DNA of 36,256 nucleotides, from positions 1 through 36,256 of the forward strand of contig JAUWLP010000003.1 of assembly GCA_030613575.1 (NCBI GenBank), written 5' to 3'. Under the pieces are notes generated by a model. That model worked only from the letters and a program-made list of their open reading frames with translations, was not told the DNA's origin and searched no databases. The stretch comes from Desulfobacteraceae bacterium (GTDB lineage: Bacteria > Desulfobacterota > Desulfobacteria > Desulfobacterales > UBA11574). Shown one piece after another: positions 883 to 16,259 of this stretch. Positions within the stretch are counted from its first letter, which is position 1, and each line of letters opens with the position of its first letter. The translations under genes and the position numbers were made by a program.

Positions 883-2916
883 ATGCGCATATTTAAAAGA
901 GAAAAGGGCCAAACAGAAGAATTGTCATCGGAAATAGATGAATTAAAAGAAAATGTCATTAAATCTAACATGCCGGAACAGGTAGAAAAAGTGACATTTA
1001 AAGAAATAGAAAGGCTTTATAAAACCAGTCCTTCCAGTGCAGAATATACCATCGGTATAAATTATATCGATTATCTGGTCAGTCTTCCCTGGAATAAAAT
1101 GACCGACGACAATCTTGATATTAAACGGGCTGAATCAATCTTGAATGAAGAACATTATGGGCTGGCTCAGATTAAAGATCGGATTCTCGAACATCTTGCA
1201 GTCAGAATATTAAAGATGTCCCGCCGGCATAAGATATTGGTTGTGGATGATGAAAAAATTACCCGCCGGAATCTGGAGCATGTTTTTAAAAAAGACGGCT
1301 ATCATGTCAATACTGCTGCCAGCGGAGCTGAAGCCCTGAATTTTCTGGAACAAAGCGCCTTTGATGTTATTGTAACCGATCTTAAAATGGGAAAAGTCGA
1401 TGGTATGGCGGTCCTGGAAAAAGCAAAGGACATTAATCCGGCCACGGAAGTGATTATCATCACCGGATACGCCACGGTGTCAACAGCCATTGAGGCCATG
1501 AAAAAGGGATCATACCACTACCTGACAAAACCATTGAAGCTTGATGAGATCAGATCGACTATCCGGAAAGCGCTGTTCAAGAAAATGGTCCGGCTGGAGC
1601 CCAAAGGTCCTGTTCTCTGTTTTGCCGGACCACCCGGTACCGGGAAAACTTCTCTGGGGATGTCAATTGCCCGGAGTCTGGAACGAAAATTCGTACGTAT
1701 GTCTTTGGCCGGAATGAAAGATGAGTCTGAAATAAGGGGGCATCGTAAAAGCTATGTCGGTGCATTACCCGGCAGAATCATCCAGGAAATTCGTCGCGCT
1801 GAAACCAAGAACCCGGTTATTATGCTTGATGAAATCGACAAAGTCGGTCGTGACTTCAAAGGAGACCCTGCCGCTGCGTTGCTGGAAGTTCTCGATCCTG
1901 AACAGAATACTAATTTTGTTGATCATTATCTGGATGTTCCCTTTGATCTGTCACGTGTTATGTTTATCGCCACCGCAAACGCTCTTGATCTGATTCCCGG
2001 CCCGCTTCTGGACCGGCTGGAGGTTATTACCCTTTTGGGGTATACTGAAGAAGAAAAAGAAAAAATCGCCTCTAACTATTTAATACCCAAAGAAATAGAA
2101 GAGGCCGGCCTTTCGGATAATCCGCCTGTTTTTACTTCAGAGGCAATCCACAAAATCATCAGGGAATACACAAGAGAAGCAGGACTGAGGAATCTTAAAC
2201 GCCAGATATCGTCCATTTGCCGCAAAATTGTCCGGGAAATCTTAAGCGATAGAAATAAAAACGAGCCAAAAATGATAACTCCCGAAATGGTGGAGAGCCT
2301 GCTGGGTCCCAGAAAATTTTATTTTGAAGTCGCCGAAGCCAAAGAAAGAATAGGTGTGGCAACAGGGCTGGCATGGACCGAGGCGGGCGGGCAGATTATT
2401 TTCATCGAGGCTGCCAAGATGAAAGGAAAAGGGAATCTTATCTTAACCGGTTCTCTGGGTGATGTGATGAAAGAATCTGCTCAGGCGGCAATGAGCTATA
2501 TTCGAAGTAATGCCGGATTATTAAATATTTCTGACAATATGTTCGAAGAGCATGATATCCATATTCATGTACCGGCAGGCGCAATTCCCAAGGATGGTCC
2601 TTCAGCCGGCCTGACCATCGCGGTAGCTCTTATATCTTTGATAACAGACCGCCCCTGTAAAAGAGATACTGCACTGACAGGAGAATTGACATTAACCGGC
2701 AGAATTCTTCCTGTGGGGGGAGTAAAGGAAAAAGTTTTAGCGGCTCACAGGGCCGGGGTGAAGTCGGTTGTTTTTCCCGCTAAAAATGAAGCCGACATCA
2801 AAGATATTTCGGAAGATATTAAAAAGGATCTGGATATCATCAAAATAAATGAATTAGAGGAGATAGTTGATCTGGTTTTAAAGCAAGGAAATAGTTCTAA
2901 CAACAATGAAATATAA
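883..2916 (+). CDS. lon: Lon-type ATP-dependent protease with inserted response-regulator receiver domain, lacking the Lon N-domain
   Basis: Walker A GPPGTGKT, Walker B IMLDEIDK, catalytic PKDGPSAG and downstream Lys (GVKEKV). REC domain ILVVDDE...VTDLKM...IITG...LTKP at about aa 116-232. Confidence 0.92.
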   Translation: MRIFKREKGQTEELSSEIDELKENVIKSNMPEQVEKVTFKEIERLYKTSPSSAEYTIGINYIDYLVSLPWNKMTDDNLDIKRAESILNEEHYGLAQIKDRILEHLAVRILKMSRRHKILVVDDEKITRRNLEHVFKKDGYHVNTAASGAEALNFLEQSAFDVIVTDLKMGKVDGMAVLEKAKDINPATEVIIITGYATVSTAIEAMKKGSYHYLTKPLKLDEIRSTIRKALFKKMVRLEPKGPVLCFAGPPGTGKTSLGMSIARSLERKFVRMSLAGMKDESEIRGHRKSYVGALPGRIIQEIRRAETKNPVIMLDEIDKVGRDFKGDPAAALLEVLDPEQNTNFVDHYLDVPFDLSRVMFIATANALDLIPGPLLDRLEVITLLGYTEEEKEKIASNYLIPKEIEEAGLSDNPPVFTSEAIHKIIREYTREAGLRNLKRQISSICRKIVREILSDRNKNEPKMITPEMVESLLGPRKFYFEVAEAKERIGVATGLAWTEAGGQIIFIEAAKMKGKGNLILTGSLGDVMKESAQAAMSYIRSNAGLLNISDNMFEEHDIHIHVPAGAIPKDGPSAGLTIAVALISLITDRPCKRDTALTGELTLTGRILPVGGVKEKVLAAHRAGVKSVVFPAKNEADIKDISEDIKKDLDIIKINELEEIVDLVLKQGNSSNNNEI

Positions 2917-4821: not shown

Positions 4822-6111
4822 ATGACTGAATATGCCAAGATTGAATTTGAAGGAAAAATATATGAATTCCCGATTATAGTCGGCTCTGAAGGGGAAAAGG
4901 CCATCGATATATCAAATCTTCGCCAGATGACGGGTTTGATTACACTCGATCCGGGATACGCCAATACCGGTAGTTGCATCAGTTCCATCACCTTCATGGA
5001 CGGTGAAAAGGGAATTTTGCGTTATCGTGGTATTCCGATTGAAGAGCTGGCCGAGCATTCGAGTTTTATTGAGACAACCTATCTATTAATCAACGGGAGG
5101 CTTCCTACAAGAGACGAACTCAACCAAACTTCGATTCTTTTCAATGACCATTCTCTGGTGCATGAGGATATGCAGATTTTTTATCAGAACTTTCCCAGGG
5201 CATCCCACCCCATGGGAATCCTTTCAGCCATGGTAAACGCTTTAAGAAGCTTTTACCCCGAACTCCAGACCATCGAAGAGGAAATAAACATTACGGTTAC
5301 CCGTCTGCTTTCCAAAGTAAGAACCATGGCAGCCATGTCTTATAAAATATCCAGAGGTCATAAGGTGGTTTACCCCCGGCCGGATCTCTCGTACTGCGCC
5401 AATTTTCTGAACATGATGTTTGACACGCCGGTCAAGCATTATGACATCGATGAAGACCTGGTCAAAGCATTAAATACTTTCTGGATTCTTCATGCGGACC
5501 ATGAACAGAACTGTTCTACTTCGGCGGTTCGGCTTGTGGGAAGTGGAAGGGTAAACCTTTATGCCGCGATTTCCGCCGGCATTGCAGCCCTCTGGGGCCC
5601 CTTGCATGGTGGCGCCAACCAGGCCGTTATCGAAATGCTTTCCGACATTCAAGAAGACGGCGGCAATTATCATCGGGCGATTGAAAGAGCTAAAGATAAA
5701 AAAGACCCTTTTCGGCTCATGGGTTTTGGGCACAGAGTCTACAAGTCGTATGACCCCCGTGCCAAAATCATGAAAAAGATGTGCCATAAGGTTCTTAAAA
5801 AACTCCACATTACCGATCCGTTACTCAATATGGCAAAGGAACTCGAAGCGGCGGCCTTAAAAGACGATTATTTCATCGAATATAATCTGTATCCCAACGT
5901 CGACTTTTACAGCGGCATAATACTGCGTGCCATGGGCATTCCCACCAACATGTTTACGGTCATGTTTGCCATCGGCAGGCTTCCCGGATGGATTGCCCAG
6001 TGGAAAGAGGGCGCCGACGATCCCAAATGGAAACTGGGTCGACCCCGCCAGATTTATACGGGCCCTAAAAAGACACAATATATACCTATTGATAAGCGAT
6101 GCACGCAGTAG
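4822..6111 (+). CDS. gltA: Citrate synthase (type II-like)
   Basis: HADHEQNCST, GPLHGGANQ, LMGFGHRVYKSYDPRA and YPNVDFYSG motifs. Confidence 0.97.
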   Translation: MTEYAKIEFEGKIYEFPIIVGSEGEKAIDISNLRQMTGLITLDPGYANTGSCISSITFMDGEKGILRYRGIPIEELAEHSSFIETTYLLINGRLPTRDELNQTSILFNDHSLVHEDMQIFYQNFPRASHPMGILSAMVNALRSFYPELQTIEEEINITVTRLLSKVRTMAAMSYKISRGHKVVYPRPDLSYCANFLNMMFDTPVKHYDIDEDLVKALNTFWILHADHEQNCSTSAVRLVGSGRVNLYAAISAGIAALWGPLHGGANQAVIEMLSDIQEDGGNYHRAIERAKDKKDPFRLMGFGHRVYKSYDPRAKIMKKMCHKVLKKLHITDPLLNMAKELEAAALKDDYFIEYNLYPNVDFYSGIILRAMGIPTNMFTVMFAIGRLPGWIAQWKEGADDPKWKLGRPRQIYTGPKKTQYIPIDKRCTQ

Positions 6112-7220
6112 ATACGGAGCTTAGATGTTTACTGCAACAACTCACCCTGGGTTCAGCGGTAAAGCCGGTAAATTTGCTTGAGGAAAGAGAAGCCTTCCTA
6201 TATCCTCGTCTGACACGCAGAGTAAAATCTCCTGTATTTAGGTATAATAACTCTCCCTCACAATGGGCTGATTTTGAGCCGGTTTTGTCTCTTGATTCCG
6301 TGGATGCTCCTGAAGAGGTAGTTGAAATCTACCGGGAAAAGCAGCGGGAACTGGATATAACGAGGAATATGTTCGCTGCGGTCGGCAGTGACGGATTTAC
6401 ACAATTTGCCATTGAAATCTTCGGCGCCCCAACCGCTGAAGACGCTCGGCAATCTCGCAAGATTCTTGGGAAATTGTCGGATGTTACACCTCCGGAACAA
6501 AACTGTTCGGCAAAGGAGTTTGCAAAGCTGCTCGAGACCCGCTTACGGGAACTCGGCATTTCCATGGATATTAGGCCGATATCTTCCATGGCGACAAAGG
6601 TGTGGGTAGACAGCGTTTCCCGCGCAATCTATCTTAATAAGAATTCCCTTTTTGCACACCAGGAAGTAAGACGCCTTTTAGTGCATGAGATAGATGTACA
6701 CGCCACTCGTATTCACAATGGTTCTTGCCTGCCGTGGGGCATTTTCTCCATGGGTACGGCAGGATACAGGGAAGCCGAAGAGGGGTTGGCAGTCCACTTT
6801 GAACGCCAATCAGGACACCTTTATCCCTTCCAGGAGAAAATTTACGCGGGGAGATGCCTGGCGGTATACCTCTCGCTTTCATCCGGCTTTGTGGAAGTTT
6901 TCGAGGAGCTGCTGATCTATTTCGATGAAAAGACGGCTTACACTATTGTGGAGCGAATTAAACGGGGATTGACAGACACATCCCGTCCGGGTGCGCTTAC
7001 AAAAGAATTCCACTACTTCACCGGTCCCGCAAAGGTTCGGTCGTATCTTCACGAAGGGGGTAATCTTCTAGTGCTTTTGGCCGGAAAAATAGCTTTTAAA
7101 CACGCACGAATCATAGCAAAACTGGTGCAAGAAGGACTTGTAAATACCTCAAAATGGGTCTTCCCGTTGGAGATGAACGATGATAGAAAATCTGCACCAG
7201 CTGAAGGATACTCTGAGTAA
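6099..7220 (+). CDS. DUF1704 / MATCAP-like (QEGLA-motif) zinc carboxypeptidase
   Basis: HEIDVH (HExxxH) at aa 196, downstream EEGLA ligand motif, and RIKRGLTDT...TKE.HY C-terminal signature. Confidence 0.82.
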   Translation: MHAVDTELRCLLQQLTLGSAVKPVNLLEEREAFLYPRLTRRVKSPVFRYNNSPSQWADFEPVLSLDSVDAPEEVVEIYREKQRELDITRNMFAAVGSDGFTQFAIEIFGAPTAEDARQSRKILGKLSDVTPPEQNCSAKEFAKLLETRLRELGISMDIRPISSMATKVWVDSVSRAIYLNKNSLFAHQEVRRLLVHEIDVHATRIHNGSCLPWGIFSMGTAGYREAEEGLAVHFERQSGHLYPFQEKIYAGRCLAVYLSLSSGFVEVFEELLIYFDEKTAYTIVERIKRGLTDTSRPGALTKEFHYFTGPAKVRSYLHEGGNLLVLLAGKIAFKHARIIAKLVQEGLVNTSKWVFPLEMNDDRKSAPAEGYSE

Positions 7221-8607
7221 GTGCCGGGGAACCTGGGCCTGGGTGGGGCAGAGGGGAGTCGATGCATATGCAATGGAAGACTTTGTTCCCACAGATGTAG
7301 TGTTCTGTTGCGACTTTGGTGAGGAGTATTCCAAACTTTGTACGATGGAGTCCCTATTTTCTGTTGAAAAAGATCTCGGGAGGCGGGAAAATTGGGGGAA
7401 TCGGGATCTTGAAAAGTTGTGGGAAGGGTCAATCCGGAAACGGATTGAAACGTACATCGACAAATTAAAAGCTCCCATCAACACAGTCTGTTATCGTTCT
7501 CTTGCGGTTCTGGAGAAAGACAGACGCTTTCGCCTTTTAGCACCTTCCCTGGCACTTAAGAACATGTTTGACGATAAGTTGTGGCAACTGGAACTGTTCT
7601 CCGGATTGAAGGTAAAGACACCAAAAACTTTTGTGCGCTGTCTGGGTGAAATTACTTTTATTGAAGCAAGCGATATTATAGACGGCCCGTTTGTCGTGCA
7701 GCCTCCAGTGGGCTCTTCCGGGGAAAACACCTATATTGTCAGCAATGAGTCCGACTTTGACAAGGCAAAGGAGGTTCTTGGCCCCGCTCAACGGGTGAAA
7801 CTGTCCAAATACATGCCGGTGCCTTCGTTAAACGGACATTGCGTGGTGCTGCGTACCCGGGAAGGATTGAGTGCAATCGCTGTCTGCCCTTCAGTTCAGA
7901 TTGTAGGCACCCGCGGATGCACAAACCGGGCTGAAATTTACTGTGGAAATGATTTTTCAGCTGCCCATAAGGTTCACAAATCCGTGATAGAAGAAACCTG
8001 CACAATCATGGAGAAGATGGGCCTTTTCATGGGCAGTAAAGGCTTTCTCGGGATTTTCGGCATGGATTTCCTTTTAAACGGTTATGAGGTGCTGGCGCTG
8101 GAAATAAACCCGAGGTTTCAGGGGTCAACAATGCCTCTGTCTCTGCTGCAAGTAGACAGGGGAGAAGTGCCCTTGACCGCCCTGCACGTGATGCAGTTTA
8201 TGGGCCTCATAGAAGAGTTCTCCCAAAAGTTCCTCCTGCAGTTGGGAAGGATGTACCGGGATCCTTATTCAGGCGCCCACTTGATCGTCCATAATCTGGA
8301 AAGCAAATCTTGCCGTATGGAACACGATCTGAAAGCAGGCATATACACTCTGTTGGATGACACCCTCGAGTGGGTTCGAAGTGGAGCGACCTATCGTGAC
8401 GTGGAAAGTTCCAATGAGTGGTGTATCCTGGGCAATCTTCCATTCCAGACTATAGAAATCTGTGAAGATGCCCGCATTGCCATGATACAAACCAGTGAAA
8501 GTGTTCTTGACGACAATTTACAACAACTCGAGCCCTATGCTGCGGCTTTTGTGAAGACACTTCAAAGTCGCTTCAGTGTGATTCCCTTTCATGGAGGTAG
8601 TGAATGA
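7180..8607 (+). CDS. ATP-grasp ligase (divergent family)
   Basis: FDDK, PFVVQPPVGSSGENT loop, YCGNDF, GIFGMDF and LEINPRFQGST (ExNxR). Confidence 0.85.
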   Translation: MIENLHQLKDTLSKCRGTWAWVGQRGVDAYAMEDFVPTDVVFCCDFGEEYSKLCTMESLFSVEKDLGRRENWGNRDLEKLWEGSIRKRIETYIDKLKAPINTVCYRSLAVLEKDRRFRLLAPSLALKNMFDDKLWQLELFSGLKVKTPKTFVRCLGEITFIEASDIIDGPFVVQPPVGSSGENTYIVSNESDFDKAKEVLGPAQRVKLSKYMPVPSLNGHCVVLRTREGLSAIAVCPSVQIVGTRGCTNRAEIYCGNDFSAAHKVHKSVIEETCTIMEKMGLFMGSKGFLGIFGMDFLLNGYEVLALEINPRFQGSTMPLSLLQVDRGEVPLTALHVMQFMGLIEEFSQKFLLQLGRMYRDPYSGAHLIVHNLESKSCRMEHDLKAGIYTLLDDTLEWVRSGATYRDVESSNEWCILGNLPFQTIEICEDARIAMIQTSESVLDDNLQQLEPYAAAFVKTLQSRFSVIPFHGGSE

Positions 8608-10211
8608 AACAATTCTCATCGGAAACTTACGAAATAGAACAGCGTTTTGTCGAATTGTATTCCCTTGGCCATAATGGACCTATGGTTGAGGCGCCGTTTT
8701 ACCTTCACGCCCTGGGGTTTGACAGCGAACCAGGGAGACTCGGAGCGGAACTCATCTCTTCTTTCAATAAGCTGGCACAAAAAGACAAAGAACTGTCCAA
8801 GTATGCATTGGATTTTACGGATGCCACCAATTTCCCCGAGACTATTGTCTTGATTGATGCTTCCAACGACCGGCTTCCGACCGGCCCTGAATCCTTTCGG
8901 GTATTACAGGACGAGACAACACGGTCAGGTATAAAGGCTCGTTGTTTACTGGTGAACACAAAGGAAGAACTGATGGAGGCTGTGAATGAAAACCCCAAGT
9001 CTACCTTGGTTATAAGTGAATGTGTTGACTCCAGTGCGTACAACGTTGAAGTCCTGGAGATTCTCGAGCGTATGGGAGTTATTGTACTGCCCGGGCGGGT
9101 CACGGCACCGGGGTACATCTTCTCCGACAAAGGGACCACCTACCAGATGCTTCAAGATGCGGGACAAGAAAATCTGCTGGCACGATACGTATTGGCACCT
9201 GCATCACAAATGAACACTTCCCGGGTAGTTTCGACTATTTTAGATAGTGTAGATGAATACTCTCGAAAATGGAAAACCAACCGCTTCTTTGTAAAACCAG
9301 TCACTGGCGGCAGCGGTGTAGGAGGATTCCGGATATCGCTCACAAACAAAGGGTATTTCGTTCCCGACCTTTCCAAGGTCACCGGAGATGCTTTAGAAGT
9401 CCATCCCATCCATATGGACGTGGATCCGCAGGACGACCACAGGCTTGACGAACTCTTGTGGATTTTTTCCTTGTTTTCAGCCGACCCATATTACAGCAGG
9501 CAATACATGTGGGTGAGCCTTGAGACGCTGAAGCACCGCTATGGAACCGACGATGACCGGGAGGCACTCAGGCAGCACCTGTTAAAGACTATCGCAATCC
9601 ACACAGCCAAGGTTGAAGAGAGAAGTCTGGACCGCAACAGTATGCACGCAAAGCTTGAAGATGCTGTCCGGCAATACGAAGGGTACTTCTCCAAACGATA
9701 TGATCCGGTAATCTGCGAGTATATCGACTTCGGAGCATGGGGACTCAGAGCTCACTATCGCCTCACCGACCGGGGCATACAGCTCGAGTGCGTATACGCC
9801 AGGATTTTTCAGTTGGCCCTGACCGAAGAAGGGGCCTGTTATGTCGGTTCCGACAACATTTCCAACAAACACACCGGGGTGCTCGAGGCTGTGCGGCTTA
9901 CCCCCATAAAAGAAGTCATGGTTAATACAGTAGGGGGCAGCGCTGCTTTCCAAGACCTTCTCAGGAAAGGAGGCCTGGCCGCTTCGGCGCTTGTTTCTAC
10001 TCAGGAACCTGAATTGCGCCGCCGCATCCCGGTGCGCTGCCAGATGGACTTAGCACCTATTGGTGGGAAAATAGGAGAAGGCAACGCAGACACAGCCAGA
10101 GGACAAGCCCTGGGGACGAAATGGCCTGACTTCGTAGCCAACATGCGGGAGTGGTTCAAGGATTGCTTAAGACTCTATTCTCTCCGAAGATCAGTCAATG
10201 AGAAAACTTGA
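8604..10211 (+). CDS. Atypical ATP-grasp-fold protein with large insertion
   Basis: FSDK, FFVKPVTGGSGVGG, VICEYID and QMDL...GEGN (ExN) motifs; ATGA overlap with the upstream gene; GGAGG RBS. Confidence 0.7.
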   Translation: MKQFSSETYEIEQRFVELYSLGHNGPMVEAPFYLHALGFDSEPGRLGAELISSFNKLAQKDKELSKYALDFTDATNFPETIVLIDASNDRLPTGPESFRVLQDETTRSGIKARCLLVNTKEELMEAVNENPKSTLVISECVDSSAYNVEVLEILERMGVIVLPGRVTAPGYIFSDKGTTYQMLQDAGQENLLARYVLAPASQMNTSRVVSTILDSVDEYSRKWKTNRFFVKPVTGGSGVGGFRISLTNKGYFVPDLSKVTGDALEVHPIHMDVDPQDDHRLDELLWIFSLFSADPYYSRQYMWVSLETLKHRYGTDDDREALRQHLLKTIAIHTAKVEERSLDRNSMHAKLEDAVRQYEGYFSKRYDPVICEYIDFGAWGLRAHYRLTDRGIQLECVYARIFQLALTEEGACYVGSDNISNKHTGVLEAVRLTPIKEVMVNTVGGSAAFQDLLRKGGLAASALVSTQEPELRRRIPVRCQMDLAPIGGKIGEGNADTARGQALGTKWPDFVANMREWFKDCLRLYSLRRSVNEKT

Positions 10212-12035: not shown

Positions 12036-12270
12036 ATGGACGCTTCTTCCTCAGGTAGTCTTAAACAAAACGCATTTAACTTACAATATCTTACAAAAAA
12101 ATTTAATGCAATCATACTTTTTTCGATTCATGTAAAGCAAAAAAAATTTGTTTATCTGCTTGACAGTTACGAATAATATTTGTTACCTATCTGTGATTTT
12201 TTTAGAGGCATTATCAAATATCAAAATAATGCTTCAAATTTAAAGAACATAATCAGCATAATCAGACAGT

Positions 12271-12554
12271 ATGGCGAAACAAAAAAAAAACATCTCGATT
12301 ATAAAAAAAATCAGCCCTGGGTCGAAAATCTTTACATTGTAACGCAACTGGGCCTTACAATGGTCGGCTGCATCGCTTTTTGTTTTTTTATCGGACTATA
12401 TCTTGACAAATGGTTGGGAACCAAGGGGATTTTCATAACCATATTTATCATTTTAGGTGTTATCGGCGGCGCAAACGTTGTATACCGTCAGATTCTCGAG
12501 ATAACAGAACCAAAGGAAAATGATAAATTAAATTCCAACAATGGAACAGATTAG
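12271..12554 (+). CDS. AtpZ/AtpI-family membrane protein; probable start at 12271 is frameshifted at an A10 run
   Basis: Two-TM pattern QLGLTMVGCIAFCFFIGLYLDKWLGT...GVIGG. The track start TTG 12180 lies inside the promoter (TTGACA 12160-12165). The ATG at 12271 is one base out of frame across A10 (12281-12290). Confidence 0.7.
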
Positions 12555-12927
12555 ACAGACACAAAAAAAATACTGTTCCGCAGCAATCGCTGTGGCAATT
12601 TTTGCAGGACTTCTTTTTATCCTGGCCGATCAAAAACCGATTGGCAAAGCACTAATTTTGGGGACAGTTTTCAGTATTGTAAATTTTATTTTAATTGGTG
12701 AAACACTTCCGCTAAGAATTGGCAAATCAAAAGGTAAAACATTTTTTATATCATTAGGTTCGATATATTTCAGATATATTATTTTGGCTATACCACTTAT
12801 AATGGCTATTAAACTTGAACAATTTAACCTTTTTGCCGTAATTTTTGGTATCTTTATGGTCCAGATTGTAATAATGGCCGATCATTTTTATAACTATATA
12901 TCTTCTGCCCGCAGAAAACAATTTTGA
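12541..12927 (+). CDS. atpI: ATP synthase protein I (4 TM)
   Basis: Four hydrophobic segments, G....IVNF motif and RY; sits before subunit a. Confidence 0.8.
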   Translation: MEQIRQTQKKYCSAAIAVAIFAGLLFILADQKPIGKALILGTVFSIVNFILIGETLPLRIGKSKGKTFFISLGSIYFRYIILAIPLIMAIKLEQFNLFAVIFGIFMVQIVIMADHFYNYISSARRKQF

Positions 12928-13078
12928 CGGTTTCGTAAAAAGCCCAACTTCTGCGTTGTGCTGCATTTTGTAATCATTCAACGTACGAAAAGTACGCCTC
13001 ATGATTACAAAATTTGCACGCCTTGAATTTGAACTTTTTACGAAACCGTCTAAATCGGACTTTTTACGAGTTCATCAA
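12926..13078. mobile_element. MITE-like palindromic element within the atp operon
   Basis: Perfect 17-bp TIRs GACGGTTTCGTAAAAAG (12926-12942) and CTTTTTACGAAACCGTC (13034-13050), an internal IR ATTTTGTAATCAT/ATGATTACAAAAT, and a third related end GACTTTTTACGAGTTCATCAA (13058-13078). Confidence 0.75.
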
Positions 13079-13096
13079 TTTTAGGACAACAATATT

Positions 13097-13768
13097 ATGC
13101 AAGAATTAGGTAGAATACACCAGTTGATAATCCCTTTTATGGGACGTGAAATCATTTTCAATCTTGAAGTCATGTTTATGACCTGGATTGTCATCACAGT
13201 GCTGCTTGTTTTCGGTTTTTTTGCCACTCGAAAAGCAAGTATGCTTCCCGGGCCGGTACAGGTATCTGGAGAAATATTCGTAAAAATGATTTACGATATG
13301 ACCGAAGATGCGCTGGGCGAACGTTCAAAAACATATGCCCCCCTTATATGCGCTTTGTTCATGTTTTTACTTACCTGCAACTGGATAGGGCTGTTTCCCC
13401 ATCTTCATGAGCCCACGAAAGATCTTAATACACCGTTAAGTCTCGGCATTATGGGGTTTTTTATTGCCCATTATGCTGGAATAAGGGCCAAGGGTATTGG
13501 TTCATATCTTAAAGAATACTGCGAGCCGATCTTTTTGATGGCACCGCTAAATGTTATCGGAGAACTTGCCAAAGTGGTTTCCATCTCCTTTCGTCTGTTT
13601 GGAAACATCATGGGCGGCTCGATCATTATCCTTGTAGTATCGTATCTGACTTTTAGCATTCTTCTTCCACCGTTTCTTAATTTCTTTTTCGTGATTTTCA
13701 TAGGTGCAATTCAGGCCTTTGTCTTTACAATGCTAACACTTGTTTATATTTCGGTACAGGTACATTAA
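13097..13768 (+). CDS. atpB: ATP synthase Fo subunit a
   Basis: PTKDLN, SISFRLFGNI (essential Arg) and IQAFVFTMLTLVY. Confidence 0.95.
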   Translation: MQELGRIHQLIIPFMGREIIFNLEVMFMTWIVITVLLVFGFFATRKASMLPGPVQVSGEIFVKMIYDMTEDALGERSKTYAPLICALFMFLLTCNWIGLFPHLHEPTKDLNTPLSLGIMGFFIAHYAGIRAKGIGSYLKEYCEPIFLMAPLNVIGELAKVVSISFRLFGNIMGGSIIILVVSYLTFSILLPPFLNFFFVIFIGAIQAFVFTMLTLVYISVQVH

Positions 13769-13771
13769 CAT

Positions 13772-14746
13772 ATGGCATATGATATTCAAACATGGGGGAA
13801 TATTGCTGCTTTTGTCGGAGGCGGAATGTGCATGGGAGTCGGCGCAATAGGAGCAGCTATTGGTGAGGGTTATACGGCGGCGGAAGCCAATTTGGCTATA
13901 TCGAGGAACGCGGAATCGGCCGGCGATATTTTTAAATCCATGCTGATTGGGCAGGCCATTGCTGAGTCTGCCTCGATTTTTGCCCTGGTAATTGCGATGA
14001 TACTGCTGTTTACGAAGTTCTCGGTAACGTCTTATGTAACAGTATGTGCTATATTCGCGGCGGGATTATCAATGGGATTTGGGGCTATCGGTTCCGGCAT
14101 AGGCGCAGGTTTTCCGGCCGGGGCCGCCTGTACCGGCATGTCCCGGCAGCCGGCCATGAGCGGCAAATTAACCACAAATATGCTAATCGGTTCAGCAGTG
14201 TGCCAGACCCCATCTATTTTTGCACTTGTAGTATCCTTTATTTTGTTATTTACAGATTTTTCCGGATATCCGGTTTCACCTGGATGGGCGGCTATGCTGG
14301 GTGCAGGGCTTGCTATCGGACTGGGTGCCATAGGCTCGGGTATCGGTGGCGGCGTGGTTGCCGAATCGAGTTGTGATGGAATTGCAAGGCAGCCCCTAAC
14401 GATAACACCTGTAACAAATGTAATGCTTCTGGGGCAGGCCATTGCTCAAACCCCGGCCATATTGGGCCTTTTAATTAGTTTTATTCTTATCTATAAGGGC
14501 TTTCCCGCAACAGACTCGCTTGCCCCCTCCATGGCCCTGCTTGGGTCTGGTATATGTATGGGAGTGGGTGCTATCGGTCCGGGGATCGGTGAAGGCATAG
14601 CCTCTAGTGGCGGAGTAAAAGCGATAGCAAGAAACCAGGAAGTTGTTGGAGTTATAATGCGGTCGATGTTGGTAGGAATGGCTGTTGCCGAGTCAACAGC
14701 AATATACTCAATGGTTATTGCACTGGTCATGATTTTTGTGGCGTGA
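13772..14746 (+). CDS. atpE: Quadruplicated (four-hairpin) ATP synthase c subunit
   Basis: Four ~80-aa c repeats, each with a GxGAIG.GIG helix and an RN/RQP loop. Ion sites read AESASIF (E65), CQTPSIF (Q145), AQTPAIL (Q226) and AESTAIY (E307). Confidence 0.9.
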   Translation: MAYDIQTWGNIAAFVGGGMCMGVGAIGAAIGEGYTAAEANLAISRNAESAGDIFKSMLIGQAIAESASIFALVIAMILLFTKFSVTSYVTVCAIFAAGLSMGFGAIGSGIGAGFPAGAACTGMSRQPAMSGKLTTNMLIGSAVCQTPSIFALVVSFILLFTDFSGYPVSPGWAAMLGAGLAIGLGAIGSGIGGGVVAESSCDGIARQPLTITPVTNVMLLGQAIAQTPAILGLLISFILIYKGFPATDSLAPSMALLGSGICMGVGAIGPGIGEGIASSGGVKAIARNQEVVGVIMRSMLVGMAVAESTAIYSMVIALVMIFVA

Positions 14747-14789
14747 TTTAACCTGAAATTTTAACCAAAATGTTTTTAGGAGGAAAAAA

Positions 14790-15038
14790 ATGGCAATTGA
14801 AGGTGCAGACGTTATCAGAGCAGCGGCTTTTATAGGAGCAGGTATTGCAATGGGGTTTGGCGCAATCGGTCCTGGTGTAGGCGAAGGCCTGGTTGCAGCA
14901 AGAGCATGTGAAGCAATCGGAAAGAATCCCAAAGAGGCAGGTCTTTTGACCCGAACCATGCTTGTTGGTCAAGCGGTTGCCGAGTCAACCGGAATATATT
15001 CACTGGTTATTGCGTTATTGCTCTTATTTGTTGTGTAA
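14790..15038 (+). CDS. atpE: ATP synthase Fo subunit c, Na+-type
   Basis: GPGVGEG (E32) and [11 protein letters not shown] (E65, S66, T67, Y70). Confidence 0.95.
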
Positions 15039-15219: not shown

Positions 15220-15675
15220 ATGCACATTGTCAGCAACATAGCCCTTATAAGTATAAATGGGACGTTATTTTTTCAGCTGATTTCGTTTCTGATCTTCCTG
15301 TTTATTATAAACCGGCTTATGTTTCGTCCTTTACGAGGCGTAATGAGTGAAAGAGATAACCATATCGAGAAAATCAAACAGGATATTATTGATTCAGAAA
15401 ATGAGCTCAAGAATGTAACAAACCAACTTCAACAAGAGGAGTCAGCAGCTAAGGATGAGGCTTTTGAGTTACAGCAAGAACTCGAAGCTGAAGCAAGCCG
15501 ACAAGCTGGTGAAATATTTGTTTTTGTTAGGGACGAAATTGAAACCATAAAAGAGAAGGCTCAAAAAGAAATTGACGCTCAGATATCTGAAGCCAGAAAA
15601 GATATCCGGAAGGAATCTGAAGCCCTGGCATTCAGTATCATGGAAAAGATTCTGGATCGGAGACTGGTTCCATGA
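15220..15675 (+). CDS. atpF: ATP synthase Fo subunit b'
   Basis: INGTLFFQLISFLIFLFIINRLMFRPL..VMSER followed by a charged coiled coil. Confidence 0.9.
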   Translation: MHIVSNIALISINGTLFFQLISFLIFLFIINRLMFRPLRGVMSERDNHIEKIKQDIIDSENELKNVTNQLQQEESAAKDEAFELQQELEAEASRQAGEIFVFVRDEIETIKEKAQKEIDAQISEARKDIRKESEALAFSIMEKILDRRLVP

Positions 15676-16259
15676 AAAGAGTTAATAAAACAGTTAGGTT
15701 GTGCTGCTTTATCGTAGCGGGAGCCACTAGTTTTCATTTTTTAGGACTTGACGCTCTGGCATCTGAAGGTTCAGGCGGCTGGCGACCCATATATGATGAA
15801 ATTCTATTATGGATTAATTTCGGAATCATCGCCTTTGTTTTTGTTAAATACGGAAAAACGCCTTTAATGAATTTCTTGCGGGGTCAAAAAGAGAAAATAG
15901 CACAGGATATAGAACGAGTAGAGCAAAAGAAGGAAAAGGCTGCAAATAGAATCAAAGAAATCCAAAAAGTGCTTGATGAAAAAGATGCTCGCTTTGCTAT
16001 AATAAAAGATCGAATTGTTCGACAAGGAGAAAGGAAAAAGCAGGAAATTGTCGAATCTGCTCAGCAGCAAAGTAAAATGATGCTAAATGATGCCAGGCGA
16101 AGGATAGATAGCCAATTTGGCCAGGCAAAAAGAGCGTTCCGGGCGGAATTGATAGACGCAGCAATCGAATTGGCCATGCAAAGACTTCCCCAAGAGATTA
16201 CTGATGAAGACAACGATAAATTCTCGGACCAATACCTGGCCAGCAAATTATCAGACTAA
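15672..16259 (+). CDS. atpF: ATP synthase Fo subunit b
   Basis: Leader, [23 protein letters not shown] and coiled coil; ATGA overlap. Confidence 0.88.

Follow-up and report, generated by a model that had tools for sequence, protein, structure and literature searches.

The window, as we call the whole stretch of 36,256 nucleotides of Desulfobacteraceae bacterium DNA that was analysed, carries on its forward strand an intact open reading frame (13772-14746) whose 324 amino acids make up four tandem F-type c hairpins. This gene, here c4, lies in an operon ordered atpZ-atpI-atpB-c4-c-b'-b, which by its Pfam matches and the list of open reading frames holds a complete Fo and zero F1 genes; a convergent clpB follows atpF on the minus strand. 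The features of the locus are as follows.

12180..12554, + strand: atpZ-like small membrane protein (ATPase_gene1), the operon's first gene; PF09527, E 7.3e-15; same place in relatives
12541..12927, + strand: atpI (ATP synthase I chain); PF03899, E 3.4e-07; synteny in relatives
13097..13768, + strand: atpB, Fo subunit a; PF00119, E 3.3e-52; stator Arg in SFRLFGN
13772..14746, + strand: c4 (four-hairpin c subunit), 324 aa; start codon 3 nt past the atpB stop, strong Shine-Dalgarno absent
13772..14014, + strand: c4 hairpin 1 (aa 1-81); E32 (13865-13867), E65 (13964-13966)
14015..14257, + strand: c4 hairpin 2 (aa 82-162), silent; A112; Q145 (14204-14206), then T146, P147
14258..14500, + strand: c4 hairpin 3 (aa 163-243), silent; G193; Q226 (14447-14449), then T227, P228, L231
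14501..14743, + strand: c4 hairpin 4 (aa 244-324); E274 (14591-14593), E307 (14690-14692); helper set complete
14778..14783, + strand: Shine-Dalgarno AGGAGG (consensus), ending 6 nt ahead of the single-c start codon
14790..15038, + strand: single-hairpin c, 82 aa; PF00137, E 2e-18; E32, V63, E65, S66, T67, Y70
15220..15675, + strand: atpF' (subunit b'), peripheral stalk; PF00430, E 9.6e-20; 29% identical to the F1-operon b'
15672..16259, + strand: atpF (subunit b), peripheral stalk, the operon's last gene; PF00430, E 4.3e-14; 25% identical to the F1-operon b

The real start of the atpZ-like gene possibly lies downstream of 12180, and atpI is a presumed assembly factor of the c-ring. The stator arginine of atpB was placed in SFRLFGN by alignment to the chloroplast a subunit (6fkf_a). 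The operon's a subunit and single c share only 35% and 48% identity, respectively, with the genome's canonical copies. Promoter and terminator scans returned sites no more numerous than in shuffled sequence.

The initial annotation described four fused c units, and these are confirmed. Both the Pfam family PF00137 (ATP-synt_C; E 7.9e-55, 183.4 bits, cut-off 24) and the NCBIfam F0F1 subunit C models (best E 2.2e-70) match c4 in four stretches, with NF009999 reaching 232.9 bits (cut-off 124). The units align to the downstream single c with no large gaps and a period of 80-81 aa, each carries the G-x-G-x-G runs of a Gly-rich first helix, and the AlphaFold2 model (pLDDT 94.7, pTM 0.90) folds into eight transmembrane helices forming four hairpins.

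Reading the codons directly gives E32, I63, E65, S66, A67 and F70 for unit 1; A112, V143, Q145, T146, P147 and F150 for unit 2; G193, I224, Q226, T227, P228 and L231 for unit 3; and E274, V305, E307, S308, T309 and Y312 for unit 4. The ion-carrying carboxylate is kept in units 1 and 4 (E65, E307) and is Gln in units 2 and 3 (Q145, Q226). The same codons confirm the carboxylate pairs that had been assigned to units 1 and 4 and the QTP glutamines with loss of the E32 equivalent (A112/Q145, G193/Q226) in units 2 and 3, and the normal single-hairpin c gene said to follow c4 is indeed there (14790-15038, 82 aa). By homology, c4 is an F-type subunit c, and two of its four hairpins are predicted to be unable to carry an ion by canonical chemistry.

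How many sites this leaves depends on where the remaining ligands come from. In the Na+-binding rings described in the literature, the helper ligands (V63 O, S66, T67 and Y70) are supplied by the preceding hairpin (PMC3692424; bioRxiv 10.64898/2026.10.01.756066). Unit 1 does lack the Thr and Tyr ligands, as had been pointed out (A67, F70), but because such ligands serve the next hairpin, the loss faces silent unit 2 and would leave unit 1's own site unharmed. It is the unit 4 site that would go without Thr and Tyr, since unit 3 reads T-P-x-x-L. Judged by sequence, the predicted two-carboxylate Na+ set is complete in the single c and at the junctions from c to unit 1 and from unit 4 to c. Where unit 3 meets unit 4, only the carboxylates, T227 and the backbone position remain of it, with P228 and L231 standing in place of Thr and Tyr. 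The original count of only two ion sites is right as to the two Gln-silenced hairpins, but may in effect amount to one full site and one degenerate site.

The E-Q-Q-E pattern, whose conservation had been proposed as a check, is kept in 79 of the 79 four-hairpin proteins among the 120 relatives listed. All 79 have 'ESAF' in hairpin 1 and 'VESTY' in hairpin 4 (E274 being gapped in one row). Unit 3 falls into two classes, 59 of the QTP type in which position 70 is L or C, and 20 that read QTTxxY. In the family alignment (A1; mean column identity 82%), Q145, T146 and P147 are invariant in 73/73 rows, as are E274, E307, S308, T309 and Y312. The invariance of the unit 4 carboxylates despite the loss of two helper ligands in 59/79 relatives is a feature for which the hybrid-ring model developed below offers no explanation. 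A tree of the hairpins (79 columns, many open forks, only its starred groupings used) gave no decision between an ancestral and a regained Glu in unit 4.

Elsewhere in the phylum, where forms with 2 to 6 hairpins are found, the first hairpin carries Glu, the inner hairpins carry Gln-Thr-Pro, and Ser-Thr-x-x-Tyr is kept in the hairpin that precedes a Glu-bearing hairpin, a site rule that other families obey as well. The first unit of multi-hairpin c always has Glu, with Tyr lost and Thr mostly lost, and the terminal unit reads NVQSTY in 24/25 five-hairpin and 14/17 six-hairpin forms. As read from these motifs, the rule is equally compatible with contacts between one c4 and another and with contacts between c4 and c.

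By its sequence relationships, then, c4 is a member of a large family of 2- to 6-hairpin proteins and no singular protein. Among 8000 scored candidates, 2209 proteins are relatives at E<=1e-5, and a close relative (E<=1e-30) occurs in 231 of the 401 sampled genomes of the order, spread over 117 of 174 genera. A second 320-aa family, of pattern E-Q-E-D/E, exists beside it. Open frames of 380-551 aa were considered as five- or six-hairpin genes and rejected, the 15 such regions examined and one near relative all proving to be four-hairpin genes with upstream read-through. The one match outside the Desulfobacterota, on a contig labelled Thermoguttaceae (L099), was likewise rejected as evidence of carriage by a planctomycete; it is a frameshift-ridden copy of the same neighbourhood, with an MBL gene 85% and clpB pieces 89-92% identical to those of the window. 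Three RNA libraries, from as many studies, contain contigs, derived from strains of relatives and mostly 90-95% alike, that cover c4 and span the atpB-c4 and c4-c junctions, although such contigs can contain DNA. None of the sequencing runs searched contained half or more of the words sampled from this stretch, and gaps in coverage within single runs carry no weight. A full-text literature search returned no paper on F-type c with three or more hairpins or on a hybrid rotor of Desulfobacterales; multi-hairpin c genes of such bacteria may already be listed in earlier literature, and we regard the novelty as provisional.

A single c follows c4 in 30/30 loci, and the whole atpZ-I-B-c4-c-b'-b set is present in 12 of 16 regions of the order, the remaining four being partial (three lie at a contig end; L050 has no match to b'/b). 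In regions from other families of the phylum a multi-hairpin c and a single c adjoin atpB in 18 of 18 cases, with the multi-hairpin gene preceding the single c in 17 and the order reversed in one (L121). The full two-carboxylate motif of the single c is invariant in 32/32 operon-mate c subunits, and with a mean column identity of 90% this is the operon's most conserved protein; its best PDB sequence matches are Na+ rings, namely those of Acetobacterium woodii (c1 and c2), I. tartaricus and F. nucleatum. In 25/25 related loci the Shine-Dalgarno sequence at the single c matches AGGAGG at 5-6 of 6 positions and that at c4 at just 3-4 of 6, and the c4 start lies 2-5 nt beyond the atpB stop. The contrast between the two ribosome-binding sites is an indirect hint at stoichiometry.

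A complete Fo with no F1 genes raises the matter of what it drives or is driven by. The metagenome-assembled genome from which the window comes (82% complete) carries, in addition, an atpZ-I-B-E locus of the canonical kind and a single F1 operon (b'-b-delta-alpha-gamma-beta); at that completeness a second F1 could be missed, so the argument for a single F1 leans on relatives. In a hand tally over the sampled genomes, genes for a exceed genes for gamma by exactly one in 47 of 56 c4-positive genomes that are at least 95% complete, whereas the two numbers are equal in 40 of 43 c4-negative genomes. A single alpha/beta pair beside two a genes is found in each of two complete genomes, G334 and G421. 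In five other lineages (L113, L114, L119, L126 and L127) a multi-hairpin c sits inside a full operon ending delta-alpha-gamma-beta, and in G421 the only alpha/beta pair found is the one within such an operon. On these gene inventories, the c4 Fo seems to be a second membrane motor, widespread among sulfate-reducing Desulfobacterales, and to share the cell's single F1 head.

Binding between c4 and the single c is favoured, short of demonstration, by structure prediction. A complex model of c4 with two copies of c scored 0.66 against 0.00 for the best of 3 controls, a mark attained by 58/80 solved complexes and 2/110 mismatched pairs, with at least 95% of contacts in agreement between runs and a partner pLDDT of at least 78. 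One copy of c places residues 63-68 and 70 on unit 1 (residues 32 and 65 included); the other places residues 21-41 and 65 on residues 305-306, 308-310 and 312-313 of unit 4. This result may be no more than an echo of the solved A. woodii ring, 4BEM.

We therefore propose, with a probability of roughly 0.6, that one c4 joins several copies of the single c in a hybrid ring coupled to Na+, in which two blind positions lie side by side and which drives or is driven by the cell's only F1; everything here from the composition and size of the ring and its c4:c ratio to the coupling ion and the working direction is inferred. One c4 chain, its N and C termini periplasmic, would supply four neighbouring hairpins of a heteromeric c-ring, and by analogy with A. 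woodii the rest would consist of several copies of the adjacent single c. Each Na+ site would combine E32 and E65 of one hairpin with V63(O), S66, T67 and Y70 of the preceding one. The preceding single c would then complete the unit 1 site, and the sites of units 2 and 3 would be blind by virtue of their Gln. That of unit 4, short of Thr67 and Tyr70, would retain its two carboxylates along with the backbone oxygen and one Thr hydroxyl, and the S-T-Y of unit 4 would complete the site of the next single c. Such a ring would rotate against the operon's own a subunit, through the Arg in SFRLFGN, and be tethered to the single F1 by the operon's own b/b' stalk. Eleven hairpins have been reported for Na+ F-type rings. 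Assuming that size, the ring would have 9 carboxylate sites in place of 11, or 8 if the unit 4 site is dead, and would use about 3.0 or 2.7 Na+ per ATP, respectively, in place of 3.7; the lower ratio would allow ATP hydrolysis to build a steeper Na+ gradient, or synthesis to proceed at low phosphorylation potential. The blind hairpins are clustered, two here and up to five in relatives, while in V-type rotors they alternate, and so a simple 'gear change' may be the wrong picture.

The composition of the ring could be otherwise. It may contain several c4 chains or consist of c4 alone, the single c serving as a minor filler or forming separate rings; a ring of three c4, for example, would comprise 12 hairpins with 6 carboxylate sites, for about 2 ions per ATP. 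Here the S-T-Y of unit 4 would complete the unit 1 Glu site of the next c4, as the site rule permits, and homomeric rings are known from fused V/A-type proteolipids, whose V-type c chains are among the Foldseek matches of c4. We nevertheless think this unlikely, given that the multi-hairpin gene has beside it, in all 30 + 18 loci, a single c gene, which encodes the best-conserved protein of the operon, that the strong ribosome-binding site sits at the single c and not at c4, which is tightly juxtaposed to atpB, and that relatives with five or six hairpins and a single Glu would be left with 2-3 sites per ring. That same juxtaposition, together with the weak Shine-Dalgarno in 25/25 loci, suggests coupled and roughly equimolar synthesis of c4 with subunit a, as would suit a protein whose chief role is that of an assembly nucleus or ring-size template, a four-hairpin arc made 1:1 with a in which silenced sites are a tolerated by-product; the retention of atpI and atpZ fits this as well. 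As the main role we nevertheless judge it rather improbable, since the invariance of the silent-position Gln and QTP (73/73 rows) and the phylum-wide, position-specific rule indicate selection on the site pattern itself, and since a fixed template is hard to square with a hairpin number that differs between lineages, from 2 up to 6.

It is highly improbable, in our estimate, that the c4 Fo operates without F1, for instance by conducting Na+ in a regulated manner or by serving as the rotor of some other process. The operon's want of F1 genes and the one extra a gene over gamma genes in most c4-positive genomes would fit that reading, but the stalk subunits b and b', known for holding F1, are retained, the same Fo type is joined into full operons with delta-alpha-gamma-beta in five other lineages, and the full operon of G421 has the only alpha/beta pair found in that complete genome. 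Finally, the absence of the essential carboxylate from two hairpins might be taken as the mark of a decaying, functionless duplicate; an intact frame, 82% mean column identity, occurrence in 117 of 174 sampled genera, a model pLDDT of 94.7 and coverage by RNA-library contigs make this scarcely credible.

The usual view is that ring size sets the ion/ATP ratio of rotary ATP synthases; in V-type rotors and the A. woodii ring, silenced hairpins set it as well. The window adds a widespread, conserved F-type c family of globally important marine sulfate reducers, in which 2-5 neighbouring hairpins are silenced per chain under a strict position-specific ligand rule and the second Fo apparently has no F1 of its own. 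The family raises the questions of whether Fo can rotate through a long ion-blind arc, whether one F1 can serve two Fo with different ions or gear ratios, and how organisms at the thermodynamic limit tune their ATP yield. A bolder and decidedly tentative extension, on balance somewhat doubtful, is that most Desulfobacterales and several other Desulfobacterota run two interchangeable Fo on one F1, a canonical one and a Na+ one with a fused-c blind arc, and that c2-c6 represent an evolved gearbox. If so, the Na+/ATP ratio of an 11-hairpin ring would step from about 3.3 to about 2.0 along c2, c3, c4, c5 and c6, ATP synthesis at a very low phosphorylation potential, or Na+ pumping up steep gradients, would come within reach of energy-limited sulfate reducers, and a rotor passing up to five consecutive blind positions would challenge current ideas of Fo torque.

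Among known systems, the N-ATPase is an alternative F1Fo operon (atpD-C-Q-R-B-E-F-A-G) with its own alpha, beta, gamma and epsilon, with atpQ/R and without delta. It resembles the c4 Fo in being a second F-type set in the genome and often predicted to be Na+-coupled, but the c4 operon differs in its atpZ/atpI, its b' and b and its want of F1 genes. An identification as N-ATPase was rejected on this last ground and because the alternate-F1F0 models stay below cut-off for a (118.5 vs 302.1) and for the single c; with TIGR03322 (cut-off 130.85) the single c scores 64.2, and c4 154.3 as a sum over four stretches. Relatives such as G049 have an N-ATPase-like set additionally.

Multi-hairpin proteolipids are best known from V/A-type enzymes, where E. 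hirae NtpK, the triplicated c of methanogens and the 13-hairpin c of M. kandleri have been described (PMC2359735, PMC9171764). They share with c4 the gain of hairpins by gene fusion and the loss of carboxylates in some of them, and V-type c chains and 2bl2_A resemble the c4 fold (TM 0.8 over target). A V/A-type identity was rejected all the same, as V-type K models score at most 105.6 bits on c4, all below their cut-offs, against 232.9 for the F-type NF009999, and the neighbouring a, b and b' are F-type; the blind hairpins of c4 are moreover clustered, those of V/A-type proteolipids alternating. The F. nucleatum ring, reported as a two-carboxylate Na+ c11 ring (PDB 3ZK1; PMC3692424), is among the top PDB sequence matches of both c4 and the single c, and its motif (E32, V63, E65, S66, T67, Y70) is shared by the single c, by unit 4 and, as regards the carboxylates, by unit 1. 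Unlike the c4 system, it is a homomeric ring of single hairpins encoded by one complete operon.

For Desulfococcus oleovorans, also of the Desulfobacterales, Koumandou and Kossida (2014; PMC4154653) reported a complete extra set of Fo genes lying apart from the main locus, in which a and c have diverged strongly from their canonical counterparts; they read it as possibly a species-specific duplication or a transfer from Thermotogae. As far as consulted, their account makes no mention of a multi-hairpin c. Compared by that published description, this set is like the c4 Fo, whose a and c are 35% and 48% identical to the canonical copies; while it was thought possibly species-specific, the c4 trait is present in 231/401 sampled genomes of the order. 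Cultured carriers probably exist, and biochemistry and cryo-EM would be feasible if the D. oleovorans c proves to be multi-hairpin.

The closest counterpart is the F/V-hybrid Na+ c-ring of A. woodii (PDB 4BEM), described as one c1 and nine c2/3 (PMC9171764; bioRxiv 10.64898/2026.10.01.756066). Its c1 (4bem_J) is the best solved match of c4 both in sequence (E 1.1e-21) and in fold (Foldseek E 3.5e-07, TM 0.79 over target). The c4 chain has four hairpins to the two of c1, and with them two adjacent blind positions and a second Glu hairpin at the C-terminus; position 32 is Glu in c4, of the two-carboxylate type, and Gln in c1. The c4 operon, known here from its genes, is also unlike that of A. 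woodii in that F1 genes are absent and a canonical Fo coexists. Both proteins nonetheless consist of fused F-type hairpins encoded between atpB and a single-hairpin c (gene order in A. woodii as given in PMC7911925), and both are silenced by a change from Glu to Gln followed by Thr. In the alignment c1 reads AETSGIF and then AQTTGIY, following the same position rule as the c4 family, with a Glu hairpin that lacks Tyr and a Gln hairpin that keeps T-T-x-x-Y.

The open reading frame at 13772-14746 on the forward strand encodes a 324-aa protein, c4, in which Pfam places ATP-synt_C in four stretches (E 7.9e-55) and NCBIfam models of F0F1 subunit C find four matches, the best with 232.9 bits (cut-off 124); no V-type K model scored above its cut-off in the same NCBIfam scan. 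Split at a recurring GAIG anchor, its four hairpin units align to one another and to the one-hairpin c subunit of the next gene (the single c), with a period of 80-81 residues. The codons, the domain models and the unit alignment confirm in every detail the four-hairpin c and the residues first described in the initial annotation.

Residues of the c4 units (codon reading) and of the single c
c4 unit 1: E32, I63, E65, S66, A67, F70
c4 unit 2: A112, V143, Q145, T146, P147, F150
c4 unit 3: G193, I224, Q226, T227, P228, L231
c4 unit 4: E274, V305, E307, S308, T309, Y312
single c (14790-15038, single hairpin, 82 aa): E32, V63, E65, S66, T67, Y70

The genes atpZ-I-B-c4-c-b'-b form one block, all on the same strand.

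Other genes of the Fo block and its neighbour
12180-12554, same strand as c4: atpZ-like gene
12541-12927, same strand as c4: atpI
13097-13768, same strand as c4: atpB (subunit a)
15220-15675, same strand as c4: b'
15672-16259, same strand as c4: b
clpB: opposite strand, convergent to the Fo block

No F1 genes lie within the window, the remaining genes of which are housekeeping (Lon-like protease, citrate synthase, thiamine synthesis, glycogen-related). A response-regulator receiver domain (residues 118-227) sits close to the N-terminus of the Lon-type protease (883-2916, forward strand; AAA and Lon_C). Consecutive forward-strand genes at 6099-10211 encode a MATCAP-like carboxypeptidase homologue, an ATP-grasp protein and a 535-aa protein without a Pfam match, a trio upstream of divergent genes, MBL and DHH, which in many relatives are found with the operon. 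In the atpI-atpB spacer (12926-13090) lies a MITE-like element of ~165 bp that has terminal inverted repeats and gave 105 BLAST segments over many contigs of the same MAG; many of these copies are nearly full-length, with 93-98% identity. Contigs of related strains lack 164 bases at this place, and depth there was very high in one run.

A word-indexed protein search with c4 scored 8000 candidates, of which 2209 reached E<=1e-5. By length, the best 120 of these cluster at about 324, 404 and 485 aa, and a hairpin HMM divided them, together with the window's own protein, into 79 four-hairpin (c4 included), 25 five-hairpin and 17 six-hairpin forms. Conservation of the carboxylate pattern E-Q-Q-E in homologues of ~320 aa, a check proposed in the initial annotation, proved complete in this set (79/79 four-hairpin proteins); among the same best 120 matches, E-Q-Q-Q-Q was found in 24/25 five-hairpin and E-Q-Q-Q-Q-Q in 13/17 six-hairpin proteins. 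At E<=1e-30, c4 matched 231 of 401 genomes drawn evenly from the order, including 164/278 high-quality genomes and 117/174 genera, as well as 88 entries in a search of 1.84 billion cluster representatives. In a sample of the phylum, 42/401 genomes had a match. Named records with close relatives are MAGs of Desulfobacterales, Desulfobacteraceae, Desulfococcaceae, Desulfosarcina and Desulfosalsimonadaceae.

Within the order c4 is followed by the single c in 30/30 loci, and the fetched regions hold the whole operon in 12/16 cases and part of it in the remaining 4. Other families of the phylum have multi-hairpin genes with 2, 3, 4, 5 and 6 hairpins, which adjoin atpB and pair with a single c in 18/18 regions, the multi-hairpin gene coming first in 17 of them; the single c comes first at locus L121 (genome G543), where a two-hairpin c, both hairpins fully EVESTY, is encoded 3' of it. 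Locus L128 (G625) has a three-hairpin variant, E-Q(STY)-E(STY). The window's neighbourhood (MBL, DHH, atpZ-I-B-c4-c, clpB) recurs at 60-94% protein identity and with many frameshifts in L099, labelled Thermoguttaceae (Planctomycetota); we rejected this as a planctomycete gene, the contig being probably a mis-binned, error-rich one from Desulfobacterales. We also noted a second large family of ~320-aa four-hairpin c proteins (P0200, P0201, P0205-P0270) with the pattern E-Q-E-D/E and 25-34% identity to the window's, for which F-type models scored best in the three members scanned (P0200, P0213, P0228), and giant proteolipids of 8 to 15 hairpins (P0142, P0172, P0173, P0190, P0204), nearly all of which have Glu in each hairpin. 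The records of P0142 (1139 aa, 15 hairpins) and of its cluster members carry the name hypothetical protein and come from Promethearchaeota and Hodarchaeota MAGs.

In the available passages on the F. nucleatum structure (PMC3692424), one hairpin gives the Na+ ligands E32 and E65 and its neighbour V63(O) and S66, with a water ligand held by T67 and E65 hydrogen-bonded by Y70. Double-hairpin subunits need Glu in the second hairpin and [STQ][STQ]xxY only in the first, according to the accessible part of a 2026 preprint (bioRxiv 10.64898/2026.10.01.756066), which implies that the helpers are supplied by the preceding hairpin. The multi-hairpin family follows a corresponding rule. Its first hairpin always has Glu, with its own helper positions decayed ('ESAF' in 79/79 four-hairpin forms), because these face a blind site, i.e. 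one with Gln at the carboxylate position; inner hairpins read Q-T-P; and the hairpin before a Glu hairpin retains S/T-T-x-x-Y even with Gln in place of its own carboxylate. The last unit is NVQSTY in 24/25 five-hairpin and 14/17 six-hairpin forms. By sequence alignment the two-hairpin c1 of A. woodii obeys the same rule (AETSGIF, then AQTTGIY), its Glu hairpin having lost Tyr and its Gln hairpin keeping T-T-x-x-Y.

The window's c4 breaks this rule. Its unit 3 reads G-I-Q-T-P-L, so that the unit 4 site has E274, E307, the backbone position and T227 but is left without the Thr and Tyr helpers. This state is shared by 59/79 four-hairpin relatives; in the remaining 20, unit 3 reads Q-T-T-x-x-Y, which makes the unit 4 site complete. 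The initial annotation had noted that unit 1 lacks the Thr/Tyr ligands. Those residues are indeed absent from unit 1, but the helpers come from the preceding hairpin and the observation was assigned to the wrong site: whichever hairpin precedes unit 1 in the ring should complete its site and, read from these residues, the site of doubtful quality is unit 4's, not unit 1's. A tree of 146 hairpins over 79 columns, with many open forks, groups all first units (SH-aLRT 96), the single c subunits (92) and 47 Q-T-P units, nearly all of them inner ones (97), and places the window's unit 3 among Q-T-T-x-x-Y units (98) and its unit 4 among the NVQSTY units that end five- and six-hairpin forms (97).

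An AlphaFold2 model of c4 (73-row alignment; pLDDT 94.7, pTM 0.90) has eight long helices in four hairpins joined by loops of 7-9 residues, with helix breaks at 145/146 and 226/227 adjoining the Pro of QTP. Foldseek against the PDB ranked A. woodii c1 first (4bem_J, E 3.5e-07, TM 0.79 over target), followed by V-type c chains, and found no chain covering more than about half of the model (TM over query <=0.46). Predicted as a complex with two copies of the single c, c4 scored 0.66 (best of three controls, 0.00), a mark reached by 58/80 solved complexes and 2/110 mismatched pairs, although, with the similar complex 4BEM solved, this score may reflect recall of a known ring and not independent evidence. 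Runs agree in at least 95% of contacts, with partner pLDDT of at least 78. One single c packs residues 63-68 and 70 onto unit 1, whose residues 32 and 65 are among those contacted, and the other sets 21-41 and 65 against 305-306, 308-310 and 312-313 of unit 4. These modelled contacts match the prediction of the site rule, and the model supports, but does not show, binding of the single c by c4.

Translation signals were compared in 25 of 30 loci, five being left out. The c4 start codon lies 2-5 nt past the atpB stop with an AGGAGG match of only 3-4/6 (25/25 loci), and the single c has a 5-6/6 match at proper distance in all 25 (6/6 in 19), which is compatible with roughly 1:1 synthesis of c4 and subunit a and an excess of the single c. 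The exact strain was absent from all sequencing runs searched. Three RNA libraries from three studies (X4, X6, X7) gave contigs, most of them 90-95% alike, over the operon of close relatives; these bridge atpB into c4 (X4 record 10, 13090-14076; X7 record 28, 13454-14055) and c4 into c (X7 record 29, 14320-14872; X6 record 20, 14732-14963). As RNA libraries can contain DNA and a contig spanning two genes does not prove one transcript, these lend weak support to expression of the c4 operon.

The window's MAG (2.4 Mb, 198 contigs, 82% completeness) has a second, canonical locus atpZ-I-B-E on contig C128 and one F1 operon (b'-b-delta-alpha-gamma-beta) on contig C86. Identity to the canonical copies is 35% for a, 48% for c, 29% for b' and 25% for b; judged by these values, the window's Fo proteins are old paralogues, not recent copies. 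Five other lineages (L113, L114, L119, L126, L127) encode a multi-hairpin Fo inside a full operon ending delta-alpha-gamma-beta, which argues that this Fo type works with an F1. The complete genomes G334 and G421 each have two a genes and one alpha/beta pair, in G421 within the multi-hairpin operon; further strong PF00006 matches in G421, whose open frames span 440-566 aa and lack an a, b or gamma call alongside, are presumably flagellar-type ATPases.

We tallied a against gamma genes, combining tables by hand, in 100 genomes of the order at least 95% complete, dropping G788 (c4 status unknown). Genes for a exceed those for gamma by exactly one in 47/56 c4-positive genomes and the two numbers are equal in 40/43 c4-negative ones; since the a gene beside c4 is part of the group-defining trait, the informative part is the missing gamma. 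The extra Fo thus arrives without an extra gamma. Among the other c4-positive genomes, four have an a excess of two or more (G034, G055, G060, G066), two have no gamma found (G041, G048) and three have equal raw numbers (G058, G073, G252), the second gamma match being a fragment in G058 and G073. In G252 (reported 100% complete, 9% contamination) the only a gene seen is that of the c4 operon. Three near-complete c4-negative genomes (G029, G059, G079) have two a genes, one gamma and no c4 match; these and G252 may reflect gaps in assembly or additional variants. Extra a genes also occur where a genome has gamma two or three times, as expected if N-ATPase-like sets have been added as in G049.

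All six residues of the experimentally shown F. nucleatum Na+ site recur in the single c and in c4 unit 4, the best solved sequence relatives of the single c are all Na+ rings, and the MAG has two Rnf/Nqr-type loci. Na+ coupling of the window's Fo is likely, at roughly three chances in four. The canonical c (C128, 2718-3005, reverse strand) has Q32 and V-E-S-L-C-I-Y, a Na+ motif incomplete for Thr at +2, and its coupling ion is likewise not obvious from sequence. All Na+ F-type rings known in 2013 had 11 hairpins, in the passages available from PMC3692424. At that size a c4 ring would use ~3.0 Na+ per ATP (2.7 if unit 4's site is dead), and rings of the five- and six-hairpin relatives 2.3 and 2.0. 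Papers on C. aceticum and Eubacterium callanderi state, in the parts available, that fewer ions suit steep-gradient pumping or synthesis at low phosphorylation potential and that ATP synthesis is still possible with a V-type c. Since its blind hairpins are clustered, the rotor would have to turn through a long arc with no ions exchanged, and how it does so is the most interesting question.

The passages searched gave no account of F-type c subunits that have three or more hairpins, nor of a site rule for them. The available text of the D. autotrophicum genome paper names AtpA-I only, that of a 2026 Desulfatiglandales paper, which cites Brandt and Muller 2015, reports atpE in two to four copies, and that of the 2026 rotary ATPase evolution preprint (bioRxiv 10.64898/2026.10.01.756066) calls F-type rings 'predominantly' single hairpins, with A. 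woodii the only mixed ring cited. New here are the size and regularity of the multi-hairpin family, the position-specific ligand rule with its re-reading of which c4 site is impaired, and the F1-less operon, together with a pattern seen across the order in which two Fo accompany one F1. The main idea of the initial annotation, a hybrid ring that has a reduced number of ion sites, is the explanation with the most support, by close analogy with A. woodii.
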